From NCBI GenBank assembly GCA_964441155.1, contig CAYYKL010000001.1, positions 24,393-88,392 of the forward strand: 64,000 nt of DNA, given 5' to 3'. Shown here piece after piece: positions 6,517 to 62,456 of this stretch. The notes beneath the pieces were generated by a model that did no database searches, was not told where the DNA came from, and worked only from the letters and a program-made list of their open reading frames with translations. A program made the position numbers and the translations under genes. The DNA comes from an uncultured Pseudomonadales bacterium. GTDB lineage: Bacteria; Patescibacteriota; Microgenomatia; UBA1400; RBG-16-45-19. Numbering within the stretch: position 1 is the first letter of the stretch; each line of letters opens with the position of its first letter.

Positions 6517-9441
6517 CTACGCTTGTGATCGAATGATACGCAACATTTCACCATGCTTAAGCGTTTTGGCTAAGACTTTGGTTTTGATTTCAGTTTCAAA
6601 GAGTTCTGGCCACTCTGGCAATTCCACGTCGACCAATTCATCATGAGCAGTTTGCGCCACTTTCCTGGCATCCATAATCTTGCGAATGATTTCACGCGCC
6701 TTGCCTTCGGCTTCAAGTTCGGGCGACAACTCAAGATCTAGATAGGCGGTAACGACGCCCATTTTTGCCGCATCACTCGCGTGCTTCACCGTTGTCTTAG
6801 CGGCATACTCTTGAGAAATGGGTGTAAACACTTTTACATTTGCCTCAGCTTGGATCAGAGCAACCAACTGTGGTTCTTCATTCAGAATCTTGGCGAAAGG
6901 GCGATCAAGCGACCAACTGCCCAGAGGCTGACGGGCTGGTATGCCAGATTCTTTGCGCAGCGAATGAAGCAGAGAAACAATATGTTGTATTAGGTCCATA
7001 CGATTTTCAAGTTCGGGTTTGTTGGCATCAGCTCGAAATTGAGGCAAAAGTTCTAAATGAATTGATTCTTTGCCATTTATGACTATATTTTGGTACACCA
7101 ACTCTGCAAAAAATGGTGCAAACGGGGCAATGAGTAAACTCCAGCGCAACAGTGTTGCCCTAAACACCTGAAGTACTTCTTGATTGGTTGCATTGTCACG
7201 CAATCGATCTCGACTCAAGCGCAACCACCAAGTCGAAAATTCTTGCACAAACTCCATGAGTGCTCTTGATGCAGTCACCACGTCATAGCTATCCATCGCT
7301 TCAACCACCGTTTTGGTTAAGCCTTCGACTTTGGATATAAGCCATTGGTCCAATACGTGCTCTGCTTTTTGGGGAAGTGCAAAATCTTGCTGGTCGTCAT
7401 CATAGAGTTTATAGAAAGAGAGAACATTCCACATCATCACTAATACTTTTTTCCTGATTTCGTCGACTTGAACTTCGGCAAAATTGACATTTTCAGCCGT
7501 TTTCATGACAGGAGAACTAGCGAAATATAATCTCAGTGCGTCAACGCCATATTTGTCGACAAGCAACATCGGATCGGTAAAATTGCGTTTACTCTTGCTC
7601 ATTTTGGTGCCATCTGCAGCCATAATCGTGCCGGTCGTGAGCGCGTTTTCAAAGGTATGTTTGCCAAACAGTGCCACCGACATCACGTGAAGCGTATAAA
7701 ACCAGGCTCGAGTTTGAGCAATATACTCACTAATAAATTGGGCTGGGTGGCGCTTGTCAAATTTTTCTTGGTTTTCAAACGGATAATGCTCGCTTGCATA
7801 AGGCATGCTTCCCGACTCGACCCAACAATCAAAGACTTCCGCGATTCTTGTGCCTTTTATAGTCTTTGCATCATCAACCCAGACTTCAATGTCATCAATA
7901 AACTCTCGATGAATATCGGTTAATCCTTCAACACGTGTCGGATCTACTGCCCAGTCTTTAAGCTCGTCAATTGAGCCAATAACGCGGTATTTTTTTGATT
8001 TTGGATTTTGATTATCGGTTATGTGTTCTTCCCATATTGGCATTGGCGTACCCCAATAACGCGAGCGCGAGATGTTCCAATCAGGCGCCGTTTCCAATCC
8101 TTTGCCAAATCGACCGGCTTTTAAGTGCGAGGGCACCCAATTAATGGGTTCGTTGTTTGCAACTAATTGATCTTTGATGGATTGAATGTTTATAAACCAG
8201 GCTGGAATACCAGTGTAAAAGAGTGGCGTTTCACAGCGGTAGCAATGTGGGTAGGAGTGGACAAATTTTTCTTGCTTAAACAGCAACTCACGCTTGGTTA
8301 GATCATCAAGTACCCAGGCTTCTGATTTTTTGAAAAAGACGCCTGACAATGGCTCCACGAAAGGTAAAAACTTGCCTTGGTCGTCAAGCATGTCCACCAA
8401 AGGTAAATCAAGTTTCAAAGCTAATTGAAAATCATCTTCACCATACATTGCGGCCGTGTGCACTACACCGGTTCCGTCCTCCATGGACACAAAATCACCA
8501 GCGGCAACATAGTGTGCTTTTTTGTCGCCAATATCAAGATAGGTGTAGAGCGGTTCATATTCCCACCCCGACATATCAGCACCCATCAGTGTTTCAACCA
8601 CTTCATAGGGTTTTTCGATGATGCCAAGTCTCGCTTCGGCTAAATAGAAAAACTCTTCGTCAATTTTGATTTTGACATACGGCTTGTCGGGTGCCACGGC
8701 TAGACCCACATTGCCAATGAGTGTCCAGGGAGTGGTGGTCCAGGCTAATATAAATTCATTCTGATGATTTTTTCGCTTGAACTTAATAGTGATTGAATTG
8801 TCTTCGACGTGCTTGTAGCTGTTGTCCATGGCGATTTCGAAATTAGACAGTGGCGTGGAACAGCGAGGACAATAGAGGATTACTTTTCTGCCTTGATACA
8901 CCAGACCTTTTTCGTGCAGTTGTTTAAACGCCCACCACACCGATTCCATGAAACTCACGTCCATAGTTTTATATGAGTTTTTAAAATCAACCCAGCGACC
9001 GATGCGCTTGATGATTTTTTCCCACTCAGCGTCGAAGCGAAAAATGGCAGATCGACATGCTGCGTTAAATTTGTCGATGCCTAAATCTTCAATGCCTTTT
9101 TTGCCACCTTTAAGATCAAGCTCTTTTTCGACAATGTTTTCAATTGGCAAGCCATGGCAATCCCAACCCCATTTTCGCTCGACCCTGAAGCCTTTCATCG
9201 TCCAATAGCGGGGCACGATGTCTTTCATGATCGAACCTAAAAGATGGCCATAGTGCGGCAAGCCCGTGGCAAAGGGAGGGCCGTCATAGAAAACAAACGG
9301 CTTGTCAGCACTGCGCTCACTCACCGATTTTTCGAAAGCATGAATCTCATCCCAATATTTGAGCACGCGCTCTTCAAGCTCGGGCAAATTTGGTCGCTGT
9401 TTAAAATCTAGGTTTTTTATGTCTGTCATATGTTGGGTCAT
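6517..9441 (-). CDS. ileS: isoleucine--tRNA ligase
   Basis: Class I aaRS: HIGH-type motif (PHYGH) and KMSKS; length ~975 aa. The start is chosen at MTQHMTD (9441). The ORF's extension to 9528 would translate through the leader. Confidence 0.9.
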   Translation of the reverse strand: MTQHMTDIKNLDFKQRPNLPELEERVLKYWDEIHAFEKSVSERSADKPFVFYDGPPFATGLPHYGHLLGSIMKDIVPRYWTMKGFRVERKWGWDCHGLPIENIVEKELDLKGGKKGIEDLGIDKFNAACRSAIFRFDAEWEKIIKRIGRWVDFKNSYKTMDVSFMESVWWAFKQLHEKGLVYQGRKVILYCPRCSTPLSNFEIAMDNSYKHVEDNSITIKFKRKNHQNEFILAWTTTPWTLIGNVGLAVAPDKPYVKIKIDEEFFYLAEARLGIIEKPYEVVETLMGADMSGWEYEPLYTYLDIGDKKAHYVAAGDFVSMEDGTGVVHTAAMYGEDDFQLALKLDLPLVDMLDDQGKFLPFVEPLSGVFFKKSEAWVLDDLTKRELLFKQEKFVHSYPHCYRCETPLFYTGIPAWFINIQSIKDQLVANNEPINWVPSHLKAGRFGKGLETAPDWNISRSRYWGTPMPIWEEHITDNQNPKSKKYRVIGSIDELKDWAVDPTRVEGLTDIHREFIDDIEVWVDDAKTIKGTRIAEVFDCWVESGSMPYASEHYPFENQEKFDKRHPAQFISEYIAQTRAWFYTLHVMSVALFGKHTFENALTTGTIMAADGTKMSKSKRNFTDPMLLVDKYGVDALRLYFASSPVMKTAENVNFAEVQVDEIRKKVLVMMWNVLSFYKLYDDDQQDFALPQKAEHVLDQWLISKVEGLTKTVVEAMDSYDVVTASRALMEFVQEFSTWWLRLSRDRLRDNATNQEVLQVFRATLLRWSLLIAPFAPFFAELVYQNIVINGKESIHLELLPQFRADANKPELENRMDLIQHIVSLLHSLRKESGIPARQPLGSWSLDRPFAKILNEEPQLVALIQAEANVKVFTPISQEYAAKTTVKHASDAAKMGVVTAYLDLELSPELEAEGKAREIIRKIMDARKVAQTAHDELVDVELPEWPELFETEIKTKVLAKTLKHGEMLRIIRSQA

Positions 9442-9720
9442 CCTGAACGTGTTTAGTTTAACGATACAAAAAAAGCGGCACACATCCTCTCTTTCAAAAG
9501 GTCCCGTTGACGGGAGGTACCACCTCAATTAGCGATTAGGATCTAGGGTTTAGTGGCTAGAGTTTTTTGCATTTCCCTAATCACTATTCACTAGTGGCTA
9601 ACCACTGTCTCGTTCCTGCTGTCTCGGGCTTACCCGGAAGGGTCTAATGAGGATGCTTGCATCCTGTTCTTCCTTCTCCCCCACCTACTTTTGTAGTAGA
9701 TCTCCTTGCTGATAACAAGT
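9442..9720 (-). promoter_or_regulatory. T-box riboswitch-like leader upstream of ileS
   Basis: The minus-strand RNA contains AAUUGAGGUGGUACCUCCCG (plus-strand ~9503-9522), matching the T-box consensus AAUUAGGGUGGUACCGCGG. A compact antiterminator can be drawn: GAGG / 7-nt bulge UGGUACC / UCCCG-UCAA-CGGGA / CCUU. The bulge variable base U is complementary to the tRNA-Ile discriminator A73. A U8 tract follows, and upstream hairpins could form Stem I. The specifier and terminator pairing are not resolved. Confidence 0.45.
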
Positions 9721-9980
9721 GAATTCATTAGGGAATTTTCTTGAGTATATCACACAAGTATTTTACCGAACCACAGACGCAAACTTTTCAAGTTCTTCAT
9801 GCTCAACAGTTAGTCTAGCCTCATCAATTAAATGGTTTAATGCCTTCTATACGTCTGGTGAAACAATTCTATTACTTCCATATTGTTCGCGAGCATACTT
9901 CAAAACTAGCTCTTCTTGTCCTTCTTCAATCTAAGGAGCAATAGAACTGATGACAAAAACTCCAGATTCCATGGTTTAAG

Positions 9981-21023: not shown

Positions 21024-21259
21024 GGTAAAAGTTTTCCCTTTCGTCCTGTGTTTATATTACTAAACCGGACTCATCAGTCCCGACATAATCGGGAGAGGGG
21101 CAAAGCGGTACGGGGTCAGAAAATCGATTGGAGCTGATAAATCAGCAAAAATGACAGGTGTCATTTTCCAAAAGATGTTCGTCTCCCATACAGCTTCGCG
21201 CCCTTTACAAAATGCTAGTTGAAACTAGCGTTGATCCTAAAGCGAACTAAAGTGTTGGC

Positions 21260-24321: not shown

Positions 24322-25248
24322 CTAATTCTGGCTCTTCTCACCCTCCTTGAGCTGCTTGACAACCATCGCCGGATCTTGCTGCAGACCGCGCTCGGCCAGG
24401 AGCTCTTCGATTCGGCCGGTCCGCGCCGCGGGGGTCAAGAGAAGCAGTTCGCGCTGAACAGCTGCGCTGCTGGGCACACGTTGGAACGTGTCCCGTGCCG
24501 CATTCGCAGCTGCGACCGCACGATTTGCCTGGGATTCCAGGTCCCGCAACTCGCGCGTTGCTGAGTTATCCGTACCGACCCCGCTAGACGCGTGGTAAAA
24601 GTCTTTTGCAGCCTGGCCAGCAGTCGACTTCCCCGCAGCAACTTGCGCTTTCCGAATGGTTTCGGCCTTGAGAGTCTGGACGAGTTCCTTCAGTCTGCTC
24701 GCTTCATCAATCATCCTGAGTGCGGCCTCATAGTCGGGCTGCATATCCTGCAAGGATGATTCGAAACCTTGAATCTTAGCATCGGCTTGTAAAGCCGCGC
24801 TTTCGTTCATCCCGATTTCTTGATTTTGCCGAGCGTCGTCGATGCCATCGCCCATCAATTGCTTGAGGTTGTTCAACGCCAGTTCACGAATTTCAAGTTG
24901 TTCTTCACGTTGCCGCTGAAGCAGCATGTACGCATCGACCACTTGTGCATTGTGAACCTGCGCTTGCTCTAGCTGCCGCAGACGCTGTTGCGCCTCCGCC
25001 TCAGCTTTGGTTTCGATCGTCTGAGCTCGTAGTTGCGCATTATAGACGCTGTCAGCCGTTTTATCGGCTTTGGCGCCAAACGCGTTCATGAGTTTCCGAA
25101 GGGCATTCCGTCCCATCGGAGTCGCTACCAACACAAGCCCAACAAGCAGAATACCAATCAAACCAATCACAGTCGGATCCATCTTTACTATTCTCCTTAA
25201 GTTGTTTAGAGCATTACCTCGGACGTGGTCTGCTCGCTCGACGCACAA
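24322..25248 (-). CDS. membrane-anchored coiled-coil protein, PspA/IM30 (ESCRT-III-like)-resembling
   Basis: The likely start is MDPTVIGLIGILLVGLVLVA (TM helix, ~25182). It is followed by ~260 aa of heptad-rich, Ala/Gln/Glu/Arg-rich helix (LRKLMNAFGAKADK..., QRLRQLEQAQ...). GC is elevated (~55-60%) relative to flanks. The family assignment is tentative. Confidence 0.55.
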   Translation of the reverse strand: MCVERADHVRGNALNNLRRIVKMDPTVIGLIGILLVGLVLVATPMGRNALRKLMNAFGAKADKTADSVYNAQLRAQTIETKAEAEAQQRLRQLEQAQVHNAQVVDAYMLLQRQREEQLEIRELALNNLKQLMGDGIDDARQNQEIGMNESAALQADAKIQGFESSLQDMQPDYEAALRMIDEASRLKELVQTLKAETIRKAQVAAGKSTAGQAAKDFYHASSGVGTDNSATRELRDLESQANRAVAAANAARDTFQRVPSSAAVQRELLLLTPAARTGRIEELLAERGLQQDPAMVVKQLKEGEKSQN

Positions 25249-31737: not shown

Positions 31738-32030
31738 AGATGCACCTCATTTTTTTCTAATTAAAGAATATGTTGTGAAAATTAAACTTTATGCAAGCTG
31801 GAGAATTGCTTGCTTCAAGATCCAAGCTGACTTTGTTTTCTGTAATTACTCACAGGATTTGATCAGGTTGGTTAGTGGATGCTTGACTCACCCAGAAGGT
31901 TTCCGCTGATACTTACTGAAGGCAGCCGTCTAGGCGCCGAAAGTAGTCCGATTTCTTGAAGCTGACTTCAAGACCTTCTTCCTCGTATCCCTAAATCGTC
32001 AAATGACGATGCAGGACCACACGCTCTTTT
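31738..32030 (-). ncRNA. structured 5' leader upstream of glmS; weak candidate glmS-ribozyme-like element
   Basis: A 332-nt gap between murA and glmS. The minus-strand RNA carries, in order: AGAGCG..., a P1-like hairpin (UCGUCAUUUGACGA), GAUACGAGGAAGAAGGU, a 7-bp hairpin (CUUGAAG-UCAG-CUUCAAG), AAUCGG...UUUCGGCGCC, and ACGGCUG...CAGCGG. These resemble glmS-ribozyme core blocks (GACGAGGA, AUCGAAUUUUCGGCGG, CGGCUG), but the P2 topology and the 5' GCGCC are not matched. Low confidence. Confidence 0.2.
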
Positions 32031-32069
32031 TTTGGTTATCCCTCCATAAACCTCCTTTCAAAATACACC

Positions 32070-44455: not shown

Positions 44456-45856
44456 TTACCTCTTCATTTTCTGGGTTAAATAGTCGATGAGCTTTTCCAC
44501 GCCAACTCGCTCTTGCTTGGTCGTGTCGCGATAGCGCACGGTGACACTCTCGTCAGAAAGCGAATCAAAATCAATGGTCACGCAAAAAGGCGTACCTATT
44601 TCATCCTGATACAAATATCGCTTGCCAATATTGCCTCGATCATCCCAAGTGGTGCGGAAATCTTTCTTAAGTGACGCATACACGTCTCGAGCTTTGGCAA
44701 CTAACTCCGGTTTATTTTTAAGCAGCGGGAATACGGCCACTTGATGAGGCGCAAGGCTTGGTTTAATCTTGAGTACAATTCGATTGTTCTCGGAATCTTC
44801 CCAATAAGCGTTGGTGAGCACCATCAAAAAGGCTCGGCCAATCCCCAGTGCCGGCTCAATCACATGCGGCACAAAGATATTGTTAGTCTGTGGATCACGA
44901 TATTCAAGCTTCGTGCCTGATGCTGTTGCGTGAGCATTGAGATCAAAGTCAGTGCGATAAGCAACTCCCCACAGTTCCTTCCATCCAAACGAAAATTCGT
45001 AATCCAAGTCATAGGTGTCTTTGCTATAGTGACTGCGCTCTTTATCAGTGTGTTGTCGCCATCTGAGCGATTGCTCATCGACTCCCAAAGTATTAGTTAC
45101 AAAGCTCCACATCGCCTGTTTCCACTGCTCAAATAGTTCTTGCCAAACACTTGATTGCGGATCAAAGAAGTATTCAATTTCTGCTTGTTCAAGTTCCAGA
45201 GTGCGGAAAATAAATTGTCCCGTAGTAATTTCGTTCCGAAAACTTTTACCCATTTGACCTATACCAAAGGGCAACTGAACGCGAGTGGAATCCAGCACTT
45301 GCTTAAAGTTGGTGAAAATCCCTTGAGCGGTCTCACCTCGCAAGTAGATTTTTGACTTGTCTCCTGAGACCGCACCAATAGAGCTTTCAAAAAGCAAGTT
45401 AAAGGTTTTCGGTTCGGTTAAGGGATTTCCTTCAGGACTCATTATTCGATGATCGAGCATAAGTTGCTTCATTTCATCGAGCGTCATATTTTCAACTACC
45501 AGATTTTTAAGTGAATCCTCTGCTTGCTTTTGCAACCATGCTTCAATTACATGGTCGGCACGATAGCGTTTTTTGGTTTTGGTGTCTTCAACCAACGGAT
45601 CAGAAAACGAAGCGACATGTCCTGAAGCTACCCAAGTTTGCGGGTGCAATAGAATTTGAGAATCTAGCCCCACCATATCTTCACGCTGCTCCACAAATAC
45701 CTGCCACCACGCATCACGGATGTTTTTTAATAGCTGTGCTCCAAGCGGACCGTAATCGTAACTATTTGCCAAGCCTCCATATATTTCGGAGGTTGGATAC
45801 ACAAATCCTCGGCGTTTAGCGAGAGCCACAATTTGATCTAGCGTTGGTTTTGACAT
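44456..45856 (-). CDS. glyQS: glycine--tRNA ligase, dimeric class II (GlyQS type)
   Basis: The likely start is MSKPTLDQIVALAKRRGFVYPTSEIYGG at 45856, and the ORF's extension upstream of this start would run through the leader. Class II motifs and a C-terminal anticodon-binding domain. Confidence 0.9.
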   Translation of the reverse strand: MSKPTLDQIVALAKRRGFVYPTSEIYGGLANSYDYGPLGAQLLKNIRDAWWQVFVEQREDMVGLDSQILLHPQTWVASGHVASFSDPLVEDTKTKKRYRADHVIEAWLQKQAEDSLKNLVVENMTLDEMKQLMLDHRIMSPEGNPLTEPKTFNLLFESSIGAVSGDKSKIYLRGETAQGIFTNFKQVLDSTRVQLPFGIGQMGKSFRNEITTGQFIFRTLELEQAEIEYFFDPQSSVWQELFEQWKQAMWSFVTNTLGVDEQSLRWRQHTDKERSHYSKDTYDLDYEFSFGWKELWGVAYRTDFDLNAHATASGTKLEYRDPQTNNIFVPHVIEPALGIGRAFLMVLTNAYWEDSENNRIVLKIKPSLAPHQVAVFPLLKNKPELVAKARDVYASLKKDFRTTWDDRGNIGKRYLYQDEIGTPFCVTIDFDSLSDESVTVRYRDTTKQERVGVEKLIDYLTQKMKR

Positions 45857-46075
45857 ATTTTTCCTTTTCTTGTCATCCTTGCGTAAAATAAGGATGACAC
45901 TAAAAAACCGTCCTTCATACAAAAACGCTCTACGTTTATTGTACAAGGGACGGCTCTGTATATTCGAGTCGCGGTTCCACCCTCGTTCCTTTTGCTTTAT
46001 AAAGCAAAAGACTCTTTGTCTTCACTTGTTTTTTCCGCTTGCCAAAGACGGACTATATTAGTGCAATTCTAAATT
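45857..46075 (-). promoter_or_regulatory. T-box riboswitch leader (Gly) with intrinsic terminator upstream of glyQS
   Basis: The minus-strand RNA contains AACGAGGGUGGAACCGCGAC (plus-strand ~45968-45987), a near-consensus T-box. Antiterminator: A1 ACGAGGG/CCCUUGU and a 7-nt bulge UGGAACC whose A matches the tRNA-Gly discriminator U73. A mutually exclusive terminator follows: CCGUCC...GGACGG plus U6 (plus-strand ~45902-45953). A GGCA candidate specifier and a perfect 22-nt palindrome (CUUUUGCUUUAUAAAGCAAAAG, Stem III-like) lie upstream. Confidence 0.6.
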
Positions 46076-46621
46076 TTATTGATGAATAGTCAAGTAGGCT
46101 TTGGAGCGCAGGGAGTGCGCTGCCAGTTCTTCAATGTATTCCTTGAGTGAGGTTTCGCTAAACTGTTTGTCATGGGTAAAGCCCAAGAATTGCAACAGCA
46201 ACCGAAATTGCTCTAACATCACACTCTTGCCAACCTGAGCTTGTGCCAATTGATCCAACATCTGGCTCAAGTGCGTGAAAACATATTCATTTTCTTCATG
46301 CTCCACCGTCAGCGCATCAATAATTTCCAAGACTTGATGAGCCTTAACCAGTGTTTGCAAGTTAGTGCTCAAATACGGCCGACTACAAATAAGCTGGCAT
46401 TGTGTGAGCAGGGTAAACCCCTTAGTGGTTACAAATTGAAAACGAGCTTGCGTGCCGGGTTCCAGCAAACTTCGCTTGCTCGAGTTTAAGCGTCTAGCTC
46501 CCTTTGCAACAGCCGTTACTTTGCCCAAAGCATCGGTATAAACGGTCACCATGCGATCAGCTTCTCCCCAATTCCGGCGTTTCAATACAATTCCTTGGCA
46601 AGAAAATGACTTAGAGGGCAT
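46076..46621 (-). CDS. recO: DNA repair protein RecO (short form)
   Basis: 181 aa. N-terminal OB-fold block GIVLKRRNWGEADRMVTVYT; no C-terminal Zn finger. Confidence 0.8.
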   Translation of the reverse strand: MPSKSFSCQGIVLKRRNWGEADRMVTVYTDALGKVTAVAKGARRLNSSKRSLLEPGTQARFQFVTTKGFTLLTQCQLICSRPYLSTNLQTLVKAHQVLEIIDALTVEHEENEYVFTHLSQMLDQLAQAQVGKSVMLEQFRLLLQFLGFTHDKQFSETSLKEYIEELAAHSLRSKAYLTIHQ

Positions 46622-57162: not shown

Positions 57163-58700
57163 TAGGTCTCTGCCACCTTTGATGCCGTAAAGACATCAAT
57201 GTAGGCCGCATTGATAAGTAAACCTATAGAGGCGGCCACAAACCCGGCTAAATAAGCTCTGATTAAAAGATCTTTGCTTGCAAAAGCACCTTTAAGTGAA
57301 ATCACCATTACCGCTAACACGACACCAAAAAAGCTAACAAAACCCAAAATCCCCGTTTCGCCCAGTGAGCGCAAGAATTCATTGTCGGTGGATTCTGCCT
57401 CGGTAAATTGACCCACTTCTTCCTTGGTGAGGGTTGAGTAACCACTACCAAGAAGTGGATTAGATTTCAATCCAGCCAAGGCACGTGGCCACAAAGTGTC
57501 ATAGCGAATGGCTGCTGACAAACCGTACGTATGCGCGGCATCAGAATACGTTCTATCCTGCAACTCATATTCCCCCGTTTCATTGCCCTGCTCATCAACC
57601 ACGGCAACAGGTAGCGGAATATTTTCATAGACATCTGGAGGTAAATTATTGTCAGCTTGGGTACGTGGATCAACGGGTGAAGGTGGCTCATCAGTAACAC
57701 TGGTTACCATAGAAAGCTCGCTGACGCTCAAATAGTGTTGCGGAGTGTCAATTCCTGGATTATATAAGCCAAACTTAGGATGAAAATTCTCTCGAAAACT
57801 AATTAAATTTTTCACTCCTGGAACTTGCTCAAATCGATCAATAAAATCGCTGGAATACAGTGCGAGGATAAGTGTGAATACGCCCACAATTCCCCAATAC
57901 ACGAGCGTCTTTATTAAGTTTTTGGACAGTAGCCAATAGCCAAACAACAAAATGTGCATGGCCGCTAAAAACGCTAAAAATGAGGTTCGTGAGGCAGTTA
58001 GAATCAGCAAATAATAACCAAGCCCGAAGGAGATAAAACTAGCAATCTTTAGGAGCTTATGTTTGGTAAATAATGCCACTGACAAGGCGATAGTGATGAT
58101 CATCATGGCAAAGGCAGCAGCATCGTAGTGACCACCAAAAGTGCTTGGCACCCGTGCATGCTCGGTCAAATACAACCGCCAGCCTTTGGCAAATTCTCGA
58201 TTCATAGTGGAATAGACCGGCCAATACAGAAATTTTTGACCAAAACCATACACTGAAGCAATTGACAAAACCGCAAGCAATGAAATTACATACGTTTTTG
58301 CCAACTTAATCGATTTTATTGAGGCAAAAAAGATAAAAAACAAACTAAAATATTCTATGCGTCTCACGAAATGAAGGGCAATTTTTGCAATGTGCAGAGC
58401 ACTTAACGGCACCGTTTTAGTAATAAATATGGCACTAACGACCGAAAGAAATCCAATCACCACATACGCCAAGATTGCCTTAGAGACCAACGGATGAATA
58501 GTTACCTTTTTGCGCCGCCACTGAATCAGAAAAACTATTGCGGTAATCAAAATCAAAAAGTCTTCCAGCCGAACCCGAACGATATATCCTGGAATAGCAT
58601 CGAATAATGGTAGTTTGGGATAGAGCGGAATAAAAACTAAAAGGATTCCAGCTAAAAGACCCAAACTATGCTGATCAAACCATTGTGCTAATTTCTTCAT
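57093..58700 (-). CDS. O-antigen ligase/polymerase (Wzy_C)-like membrane protein
   Basis: 535 aa, >10 TM helices, a large extracytoplasmic loop (residues ~290-420) and a TASRTSFLAF block. Confidence 0.6.
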   Translation of the reverse strand: MKKLAQWFDQHSLGLLAGILLVFIPLYPKLPLFDAIPGYIVRVRLEDFLILITAIVFLIQWRRKKVTIHPLVSKAILAYVVIGFLSVVSAIFITKTVPLSALHIAKIALHFVRRIEYFSLFFIFFASIKSIKLAKTYVISLLAVLSIASVYGFGQKFLYWPVYSTMNREFAKGWRLYLTEHARVPSTFGGHYDAAAFAMMIITIALSVALFTKHKLLKIASFISFGLGYYLLILTASRTSFLAFLAAMHILLFGYWLLSKNLIKTLVYWGIVGVFTLILALYSSDFIDRFEQVPGVKNLISFRENFHPKFGLYNPGIDTPQHYLSVSELSMVTSVTDEPPSPVDPRTQADNNLPPDVYENIPLPVAVVDEQGNETGEYELQDRTYSDAAHTYGLSAAIRYDTLWPRALAGLKSNPLLGSGYSTLTKEEVGQFTEAESTDNEFLRSLGETGILGFVSFFGVVLAVMVISLKGAFASKDLLIRAYLAGFVAASIGLLINAAYIDVFTASKVAETYWAMAGIAVAVSVLALQSKKSLK

Positions 58701-61428: not shown

Positions 61429-62456
61429 GAAAACTCATGAAGTCTTCTTTTACCATGCTCAATTAAGATCGATGAAGTATCTAATGCAGCTTGTAGACCC
61501 TCTTTAATTGATTGAACATCGTGTGGGTCACTTTTGACTACGGCTGTTGATCCTATTTCTGACATGGCTGATGTATTTGCAGTCACAACGGGCAAGGCAT
61601 GATAAAACGCCTCTAAAATAGGCAACCCAAAACCTTCGTAGAGCGAGCAATACAACAAAAGCGAAGCGCCTTTATACAATGCTGCTAACTCGAATGCGCT
61701 TGCATCAGAAATTCGAATGATATGCGTATCAGTCGGTAAATGCTCCCATCCAATTGATCCGACAATGACTAAATCAAAATCATTTTCGTACTGCTTCCAG
61801 GCTTCAATTTGACGAATAAAATTCTTGCGCGGCTCTGCTGTTCCCACCATAAGCATAAATGGTCGCTTTAGCGAGTATTTTTCTTTGACGCTGTTCAACT
61901 CAATATCTTGGATCTCAATCTGATGCTCGAGAGGAATTGCTTCATGCACCACATGAATTGAGTCGGGAGGCAAATCACATACTTCGATGAGATCGTTCTT
62001 GGTACTTTCTGATACGGCGATGATTGTGGGTTTGAATTTTCTAATTCGCTCCATCACCTCTCGATGTTGTTTTTCGATTGCAGGGTGCGACAACTTTGGA
62101 AACTTGAACAACGCCACATCATGCATAGTGATAACTACCTTTGATGTGCGAGAAGTGGGCAGATACCATTCCCAGGTGTGGAAAATATCAGAATCGTTGA
62201 TAAGTGTATCAATCGGCAATCCTGCCGAATGAAACGCAAATGAAGCGAGCGAGGGTGGCACCGGATAGAGCTTCGAAACTGCGCCAATAGAATGCGAAAA
62301 TTTCTTTAGAACATTGTAGTTGCCAAAGCTTGCCCCAAACAGCGACAGGGTATCTGAATCACTTAAAACTTTTTTTATATTTCTAACTAAGTTTGTCGTG
62401 TAAAACGAAACTCCTCGATTGTAGACGATCGAAGAAATGTCCATGGTGATACGCAT
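61371..62456 (-). CDS. glycosyltransferase family 4-like (GT-B)
   Basis: 361 aa with a two-Rossmann architecture and a C-terminal EGFGLPILEA block. Confidence 0.75.
   Translation of the reverse strand: MRITMDISSIVYNRGVSFYTTNLVRNIKKVLSDSDTLSLFGASFGNYNVLKKFSHSIGAVSKLYPVPPSLASFAFHSAGLPIDTLINDSDIFHTWEWYLPTSRTSKVVITMHDVALFKFPKLSHPAIEKQHREVMERIRKFKPTIIAVSESTKNDLIEVCDLPPDSIHVVHEAIPLEHQIEIQDIELNSVKEKYSLKRPFMLMVGTAEPRKNFIRQIEAWKQYENDFDLVIVGSIGWEHLPTDTHIIRISDASAFELAALYKGASLLLYCSLYEGFGLPILEAFYHALPVVTANTSAMSEIGSTAVVKSDPHDVQSIKEGLQAALDTSSILIEHGKRRLHEFSWQKAARETYAVYEKAMQA

Follow-up and report, generated by a model that had tools for sequence, protein, structure and literature searches.

A probable glycine-specific T-box attenuator of compact architecture upstream of glyQS in a Patescibacteria genome

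The 64,000-nucleotide (nt) stretch of DNA analysed here, referred to as the window, corresponds to positions 24,393 to 88,392 of contig CAYYKL010000001.1 (GenBank assembly GCA_964441155.1) from a bacterium of the Patescibacteria, also known as Candidate Phyla Radiation (CPR). On its minus strand the gene recO is followed by a gene encoding a glycine--tRNA ligase of the glyQS type, and the spacer between the recO stop codon (46078-46076) and the glyQS start codon comprises exactly the 219 nt from 46075 to 45857. A first-pass annotation, made from the letters alone, had read this spacer, hereafter the glycine leader, as a T-box riboswitch with a terminator controlling glyQS. All sequence features on which it was based, namely the T-box core, the bulge, the terminator, a palindrome and a GGCA string, are indeed present on the minus strand between recO and glyQS. 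The coordinates of the leader parts, which all refer to the minus strand, are compiled in Table 1 together with those of the neighbouring genes and of a second leader in the window.

Table 1. Features of the glycine leader, its neighbouring genes and the ileS leader in the window. R1 denotes the covariance model described in the text; IleS features are listed last.
Feature	Position	Strand	Evidence or detail
recO, upstream gene	46076..46621	-	RecO_N 75 bits
Sigma-70-like promoter, in the recO 3' end and the spacer	46066..46093	-	TTGACT 46093-46088, TAGAAT 46071-46066, 16 nt spacing
Specifier hairpin ('ultrashort Stem I'), 5 base pairs (bp)	46034..46052	-	UCCGU 46052-46048 pairs with GCGGA 46038-46034
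Apical loop CUUUGGCAA of the specifier hairpin, 9 nt	46047-46039	-	Specifier GGC 46043-46041, followed by the purine A 46040
Purine-rich single-stranded linker, 23 nt, 3' end AAAGAG	46011..46033	-	Alignment to model R1
Stem III, 22-nt perfect palindrome CUUUUGCUUUAUAAAGCAAAAG, 9 bp, loop UAUA	45989..46010	-	-9.7 kcal/mol
T-box core AACGAGGGUGGAACCGCG	45987-45970	-	Sequence
Antiterminator (T-box domain)	45944..45985	-	-12.8 kcal/mol; Rfam and R1 alignments
Antiterminator helix A1	45985-45980 with 45949-45944	-	
Antiterminator 7-nt bulge UGGAACC	45979-45973	-	UGGA 45979-45976
Antiterminator helix A2	45972-45968 with 45954-45950	-	Loop 45967-45955
Intrinsic terminator, long stem 45956-45905 and U6 45907-45902	45902..45956	-	CCGUCC 45953-45948 pairs with GGACGG 45913-45908
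Extra hairpin between terminator and Shine-Dalgarno sequence, 10 bp, 9-nt loop	45871..45899	-	-12.8 kcal/mol
Shine-Dalgarno AGGA 45865-45862 and glyQS ATG 45856-45854	45854..45865	-	Neither paired with the T-box
glyQS-type (alpha2) glycine--tRNA ligase, regulated gene, 466 amino acids	44456..45856	-	Pfam; NF003211 594 bits (cut-off 312)
ileS leader	9440-9745	-	Core GAGGUGGUACC 9526-9516, UGGU bulge
ileS leader specifier hairpin CUUG-UUAUCAG-CAAG	9719-9705	-	AUC-A 9713-9710 at the apex, inside a branched 5' domain

In the direction of transcription, the first structure of the leader is a small hairpin that starts only 23 nt after the recO stop codon, so that any long Stem I would fall within coding sequence. 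The linker behind it is unstructured in the minimum-free-energy fold and, with only 23 nt, has no room for a Stem II or a Stem IIA/B domain. The palindrome proposed in the first-pass annotation as a candidate for Stem III lies directly 5' of the T-box core and is preceded by the purines AAAGAG; its assignment as Stem III is supported by a high posterior probability in the alignment to Stem III of the Rfam T-box model RF00230 and by compensatory changes among relatives. The antiterminator (AGGGUGGAACCGCG) consists of two helices, A1 and A2, which border the bulge UGGAACC, and the terminator is a hairpin of 23 bp (-26.0 kcal/mol when folded alone) followed immediately by six uridines. The 5' arm of the terminator overlaps the 3' strands of the antiterminator (45954-45944), and the two folds are mutually exclusive, in agreement with the initial reading of a T-box leader ahead of a gene for a glyQS-type glycyl-tRNA synthetase (GlyRS). 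The free energy of the complete leader (-65.3 kcal/mol) was much lower than that of shuffled sequences (-42.8 +/- 4.2 kcal/mol; z = -5.4), none of 200 shuffles being as good. The terminator state reached -48.4 kcal/mol as compared to -40.2 kcal/mol for the fold constrained to the antiterminator. As the terminator state is thus more stable by 8.2 kcal/mol, termination is the default and the antiterminator needs stabilisation from outside.

The first-pass annotation had further described the element as canonical-looking and similar to the minimal glyQS T-boxes of Firmicutes; neither description was upheld. Only in a permissive mode, below the gathering threshold, did cmsearch with RF00230 return T-box matches, and the glycine leader scored 30.6 bits against a threshold of 93 (E = 3e-5 for the leader and 0.0057 for the whole window). 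Just Stem III and the antiterminator were aligned, the Stem I states were deleted, and the nominal 5' end fell inside recO. At the gathering threshold, Rfam detected no T-box in the window, where it reported glmS alone, and none in 20 related loci. Instead of a Stem I of about 90 nt, the leader contains a hairpin of 5 bp whose apical loop holds GGC; neither a K-turn (kink-turn), nor an internal-loop specifier with an S-turn, nor an AG bulge with a distal loop, nor a GA-motif frame was found in it. The first-pass annotation had named two observations that together would speak against a T-box, a score below the gathering threshold and the lack of any foldable Stem I with a GGC specifier. The former was made, whereas a conserved hairpin carrying GGC does fold. 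The window leader shares the discriminator half with RF00230, but it neither reaches the gathering score nor possesses a long Stem I equipped with K-turn and elbow platform.

The region in front of the hairpin argues in the same direction. A sigma-70-like site (TTGACT-16-TAGAAT) with 10 of 12 matches to the consensus spans the 3' end of recO and the beginning of the spacer, and it is the sole such site between 45600 and 46400. The -10 box predicted there ends 13 nt 5' of the specifier hairpin, a position which agrees with -10-like boxes located 10-30 nt 5' of the hairpin in relatives. Transcription is predicted from this site to start near 46059, about 6 nt ahead of the hairpin. One could assume that the leader is after all a canonical glyQS T-box with GGC in an internal loop of a Stem I of about 90 nt that reaches into recO, since the Rfam alignment nominally starts at 46143 and contains AUUGAA, which resembles the K-turn sequence GAUGAA. 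This assumption is very improbable and already effectively refuted: that alignment leaves Stem I of the model deleted and unpaired, the sequence 5' of 46075 is recO coding sequence with the promoter-like site at its end, relatives with unrelated upstream genes have conserved only the local hairpin, and a model containing a mere 3-bp hairpin matches the leader with 65.9 bits.

To compare the leader with those of relatives, 80 loci were fetched via GlyRS from Patescibacteria (Woesebacteria, Pacebacteria, Microgenomates and similar) and Chloroflexota. The string GGTGGAACC occurs upstream of glyQS in 45 of these loci, and the complete compact arrangement in about 46. Wherever GGTGGNACC lies next to glyQS, the variable position of the bulge is occupied by A; the only GGTGGCACC strings among the relatives (L064, L073) lie farther upstream and represent specifier hairpins. 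Almost all leaders bearing a T-box possess a small hairpin, located 44-128 nt ahead of the core, with an apical loop of the form C(U/C)UUGGCAA or a shorter version of 6-8 nt such as CUGGCAA. The motif UGGC(A/C/G) was identified in 46 of 47 leaders, on stems unlike in sequence (UCCGU/GCGGA, UCAC/GUGA, GUUUC/GAAAC, GAGCU/AGCUC, CUUGG/CCAAG). The register of these hairpins was picked by optimisation, and the same procedure was run on 3,496 background TGGC sites from the same loci. Flanking stems at the real sites had a mean length of 4.04 bp as compared to 2.96 +/- 0.22 bp for a best-of-k null (reached in 0 of 2000 simulations), and they were longer than those at background TGGC sites (Mann-Whitney p = 2e-13). 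The linker has a median length of 23 nt and a conserved AAAG(N)G at its 3' end, and the distance from the hairpin to the end of the antiterminator amounts to 111 nt in the window and 107 nt (median) in the family. About 29 of 51 aligned rows additionally contain a K-turn-like frame, GAUGA...GGAGC (GGAG/UGAG), and a basal helix around the hairpin; this frame is absent from the window and its Patescibacteria sub-lineage.

The window antiterminator, GCGACUCGAA...GCCGUCCC, most resembles the Chloroflexota type. The region from recO to glyQS was also found in four independent sequencing runs (SRR8893622, SRR8893623, SRR22392803 and SRR32799349; loci L173-L176) with 99.95-100 % identity. The source organism hence recurs across samples; the leaders are identical in all four runs and thus carry no strain-variant information.

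Nine Chloroflexota glyQS leaders alone, without the window, served as the seed of a covariance model, R1. A MAFFT alignment across lineages did not keep Stem III in register, which was overcome by bootstrapping R1 from Chloroflexota leaders as a homogeneous subset. The modelled structure comprises a specifier hairpin of 3 bp, a Stem III of 7 bp and the helices A1 (6 bp) and A2 (5 bp). R1 matched the window at 45944-46054 on the minus strand over its full length (model positions 1-106) with 65.9 bits and an E-value of about 1e-15, which makes the window the best match outside Chloroflexota; a canonical threonine T-box holding the same loop string reached 24 bits only. In an Infernal alignment of 51 sequences, 95.2 % of the cells were paired as compared to 62.1 % after shuffling (0 of 500) and 40-51 % in slid registers, and 20 of the 21 modelled pairs change on both sides. 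This alignment was fitted to the model structure; as a control, the pairs of the window were projected on a plain MAFFT alignment, where 82.3 % of the cells were paired (shuffled 64.3 %, 0 of 500; slid 29-50 %). The three inner pairs of the specifier hairpin were 96.6 % paired in the Infernal alignment, all with double-sided changes, and 72.9 % paired on MAFFT despite differences in loop length. The seven modelled pairs of Stem III were 94 % paired (Infernal), all with compensatory changes, and the corresponding values for A1 and A2 were 97.7 % and 92.6 % (98.4 % and 86.3 % on MAFFT).

The bare 9-mer GGTGGNACC is not rare in the window, where it was found three times against 0.96 expected, and the evidence therefore rests on the context and not on the core string. 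The third copy, GGTGGCACC, located at 62254 on the plus strand, lies antisense inside an open reading frame and was dismissed as a chance occurrence. This frequency would also suit the view that the glycine leader is an ordinary intergenic terminator beside a GGUGGAACC string. The probability of such a coincidence is practically negligible given the match to an independent family model with E about 1e-15, the fold z-score of -5.4 and the recurrence of the arrangement ahead of orthologues in about 46 of 80 relatives; the R1 search and the covariation already refute it. Judged by sequence and predicted structure, a conserved family of compact glycine T-boxes spans CPR and Chloroflexota and is missed by present curated models.

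The assignment of the family to glycine is indicated by two variable positions and by gene context. The leader has the specifier GGC followed by A and the bulge UGGA proposed in the first-pass annotation. U73 is the discriminator base of bacterial tRNA-Gly, and the bulge fits it, as the first-pass annotation had noted. A pattern scan of metagenomes yielded 92 matches, about 41 of which were confirmed by R1 as family members, while about half were chance occurrences inside unrelated genes and were filtered out by the model. The confirmed members precede glyQS, a serine hydroxymethyltransferase (SHMT) gene (PF00464, 224 bits) followed by glyQS, or a purU-like gene (ACT domain and Formyl_trans_N) followed by glyQS. 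As the arrangements led by glyQS, SHMT (glyA) and purU are all linked to glycine, the predicted regulon is glycine-centred. A cluster of threonyl-tRNA synthetase loci considered as a counter-example was discarded: L128 and L154 are canonical threonine T-boxes with a long Stem I and an ACC specifier, the pattern having fallen in Stem II, and L109 is a chance match inside a coding region.

Several loci (L119, L125, L127, L131, L148, L161, L163) carry tandem pairs of compact glycine T-boxes, each with its own terminator. Where a downstream gene was called (L119, L125, L127, L131, L148), the pair precedes an SHMT (glyA)-like gene, which in turn is followed by glyQS where the contig reaches far enough. 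Single copies lie ahead of purU-like-glyQS operons in L084, L116, L133 and L149.

A second T-box in this CPR-like window, also claimed in the first-pass annotation, was identified upstream of ileS (isoleucyl-tRNA synthetase, TIGR00392, 812 bits) at 9495-9737 on the minus strand. It is non-canonical and scores 21 bits only with the Rfam T-box model. Its specifier hairpin is followed by Stem II-like hairpins, and ahead of a tract of seven uridines (9474-9468) lies GUGCCGC, paired in the minimum-free-energy fold with the T-box sequence itself. The UGGU bulge of this leader is complementary to an A73 discriminator. With AUC and UGGU in the ileS leader and GGC and UGGA in the glyQS leader, both variable positions track the amino acid of the respective gene.

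Not all family members appear to use the same expression platform. A strict rule of a hairpin followed by a U-tract was passed by 34 of 47 leaders and classified the window as terminator-type. Inspection of the folds revealed clear terminators in L030, L031 and L041 as well, and the flagged L050 turned out to be a Shine-Dalgarno sequestrator, which leaves about 36 of 47 leaders as terminator-type and about 10 of 47 without a U-tract. The latter are L022, L050, L062, L069, L080, L021, L070, L032, L013 and L057; in the first five of these, whose folds were inspected, the antiterminator strand UCCCU pairs with the Shine-Dalgarno sequence AGGG/AAGGA. In some lineages, the same compact aptamer thus seems to be coupled to the control of translation. 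These leaders, together with the association of a short Stem I with translational control in the literature (PMC7583486, PMC7778990), suggest that the window leader might act mainly on translation or mRNA stability in the manner of class II T-boxes, perhaps with participation of the unexplained hairpin between the terminator and the Shine-Dalgarno sequence. We consider this unlikely, as the window has a 23-bp hairpin of -26 kcal/mol directly before U6, and its Shine-Dalgarno sequence is located about 40 nt past the U-tract and unpaired in the minimum-free-energy fold. The extra hairpin leaves the Shine-Dalgarno sequence uncovered, is not conserved and lies outside the compact family. It exists in a single copy in the window and had no match in 172 related loci, for which reasons its interpretation as a dispersed palindromic repeat was likewise rejected.

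Taken together, the glycine leader is probably a glycine-specific T-box transcription attenuator of compact architecture and of the terminator type. For this leader we infer tRNA binding, discrimination between charged and uncharged tRNA, the transcription start and co-transcriptional function. Transcription would begin near 46059, and the first structure to form would be the 5-bp hairpin, whose loop would expose GGC and a purine in a manner similar to the triplet of an anticodon loop. GGC would pair with the GCC anticodon of tRNA-Gly, after which the purine-rich linker, Stem III and the T-box domain would be synthesised. The 3' end of uncharged tRNA (U73-C-C-A) would then pair with UGGA of the bulge, and this NCCA-UGGA pairing would hold the antiterminator and allow RNA polymerase to read through into glyQS. 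With tRNA glycylated or absent, the more stable terminator would capture the CCGUCCCUU strand and transcription would stop at U6.

Lacking a K-turn, an elbow-docking platform and Stem II, such a leader would recognise tRNA by two contacts only. The proposal that it is a natural 'two-contact' T-box of about 110 nt, composed of an anticodon-loop-like hairpin and an NCCA-binding domain without K-turn, elbow platform or Stem II, which acts co-transcriptionally and is widespread in CPR/Patescibacteria and Chloroflexota, may equally well hold or fail. UGGCA is complementary to positions 33-37 (UGCCA) of typical bacterial tRNA-Gly(GCC), and the near-invariant UGGCA loop may form up to five pairs with these positions and so offset the missing contacts.

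Several observations weigh against the interpretation of the leader as a compact glycine attenuator. The low Rfam score has already been mentioned. Taken alone, one promoter-like site is within chance expectation (1.4 +/- 1.3 in shuffled sequences), and the outer two pairs of the specifier hairpin are lineage-specific and not conserved (33.9 % paired on MAFFT). A scan of the window and of about 110 related loci for tRNA genes recovered one tRNA-Arg and one tRNA-Ser but no tRNA-Gly. The closest GlyRS relatives (87 % and 71 % identical) have recO and glyQS adjacent to each other without the leader, so the element is dispensable and patchily distributed. Moreover, the elbow-docking platform has been reported as essential for transcriptional T-boxes, and tRNA binding by truncated Stem I RNAs without Stem II was barely detectable (PMC7583486). 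On the strength of these published results a two-contact co-transcriptional switch is mechanistically unproven.

A T-box was also absent from the closest GlyRS relatives L001-L005, L010, L015, L018, L019 and L024, most of which, with L001 as an exception, have kept the adjacency of recO and glyQS. This absence implies a recent gain or loss of the leader within the CPR lineage of the window.

The complete loss of the leader in the nearest relatives and the very weak tRNA binding published for truncated Stem I alone (PMC7583486) would also be explained if the element were a decayed relic that has lost its Stem I, leaving a constitutive or leaky terminator or a codon-independent response to tRNA 3' ends. 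This is decidedly unlikely. The compact form has persisted in two phyla and in many environments, each of its helices showing compensatory changes, its UGGC loop is near-invariant, the GGC loop occurs only with glycine-related genes, and whole units have been duplicated in tandem; a relic would not maintain conserved helices, loop, glycine contexts and tandem copies.

Compared with known systems, the compact attenuator proposed here combines features of different T-box classes. With the canonical glycine T-boxes of Bacillota (B. subtilis, G. kaustophilus, O. iheyensis; RF00230) it shares the control of glyQS, the specifier GGC followed by a purine, the absence of a Stem II domain, the purine-rich linker, Stem III, the antiterminator with a 7-nt UGGA-ACC bulge opposed to an intrinsic terminator and the proposed logic by which uncharged tRNA-Gly stabilises the antiterminator. 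In contrast, the Stem I of these T-boxes measures about 90-100 nt, has a K-turn, exposes the codon in an internal loop that contains an S-turn and docks the tRNA elbow through an AG bulge and a distal loop (PMC11404447, PMC7583486), whereas that of the window is a 5-bp hairpin with the codon in its apical loop and neither K-turn nor platform. The actinobacterial ileS T-boxes with short or 'ultrashort' Stem I (Sherwood, Grundy & Henkin 2015, reviewed in PMC7583486) likewise display the specifier codon in a short hairpin's apical loop and have no elbow platform. These, however, are specific for isoleucine, sequester the Shine-Dalgarno sequence and need Stem II and the Stem IIA/B pseudoknot for anticodon recognition (PMC7583486), while the window leader is specific for glycine, ends in a terminator and has a 23-nt unstructured linker in the place of Stem II. 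The ileS leader of the window looks closer to this actinobacterial class than the glycine leader does. A further likeness exists to tRNA anticodon stem-loops, as loops of the family such as CUGGCAA follow the pattern Y-U-NNN-R-N; the window loop differs in having 9 instead of 7 nt and in being part of an mRNA leader, and a kissing-loop geometry with tRNA would be conceivable.

According to the literature, transcriptional T-boxes generally depend on a long Stem I that holds the tRNA elbow with its distal platform, Stem I being longer in transcriptional than in translational T-boxes and the short variants being translational and reliant on Stem II (PMC7583486, PMC11297988, PMC7778990). All characterised glycyl T-boxes possess a classical Stem I (PMC7583486, PMC11297988, PMC7778990, PMC11404447). 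Whether a T-box can function without a K-turn was posed as an open question, and glycine T-boxes were suggested as a plausible case (PMC7583486). Our literature search retrieved no paper linking T-boxes to CPR or Patescibacteria, but an earlier description in Sherwood 2015, Vitreschak 2008, Gutierrez-Preciado 2009 or TBDB is possible; TBDB mentions a re-scan of class I matches with 'truncated Stem I', so that earlier awareness of such sequences is conceivable.

Apart from the two T-box leaders, the window contains a glmS ribozyme/riboswitch at 31813-32036 on the minus strand (53.2 bits, gathering threshold 37), which is full-length and has a 56-nt loop insertion. Two matches below their gathering thresholds, Hammerhead_3 at 21033-21102 (25.9 against 48.5 bits) and CRISPR-DR33 at 58392-58425 (23.9 against 39 bits), both on the minus strand, are probably due to chance.

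The family described here joins a terminator to a specifier in an apical loop without Stem II, and in the sub-lineage of the window also without a K-turn. Should the two-contact proposal hold, terminator-type T-boxes would not universally need the elbow contact and the K-turn. The interest of the finding hinges on true tRNA sensing in the absence of elbow, K-turn or Stem II contacts. A functional leader of this kind would set a lower bound on the needs of a tRNA-sensing attenuator and, being natural and very small, could serve as a scaffold in structural studies and in the engineering of tRNA sensors. Its existence would also mean that an entire T-box branch in CPR and Chloroflexota escapes curated models (Rfam gathering threshold 93) and that riboswitch censuses of these phyla are too low. 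For the biology of these organisms, the predicted leaders document amino-acid-responsive regulation of glyQS, ileS, glyA and purU in the reduced genomes of CPR bacteria.

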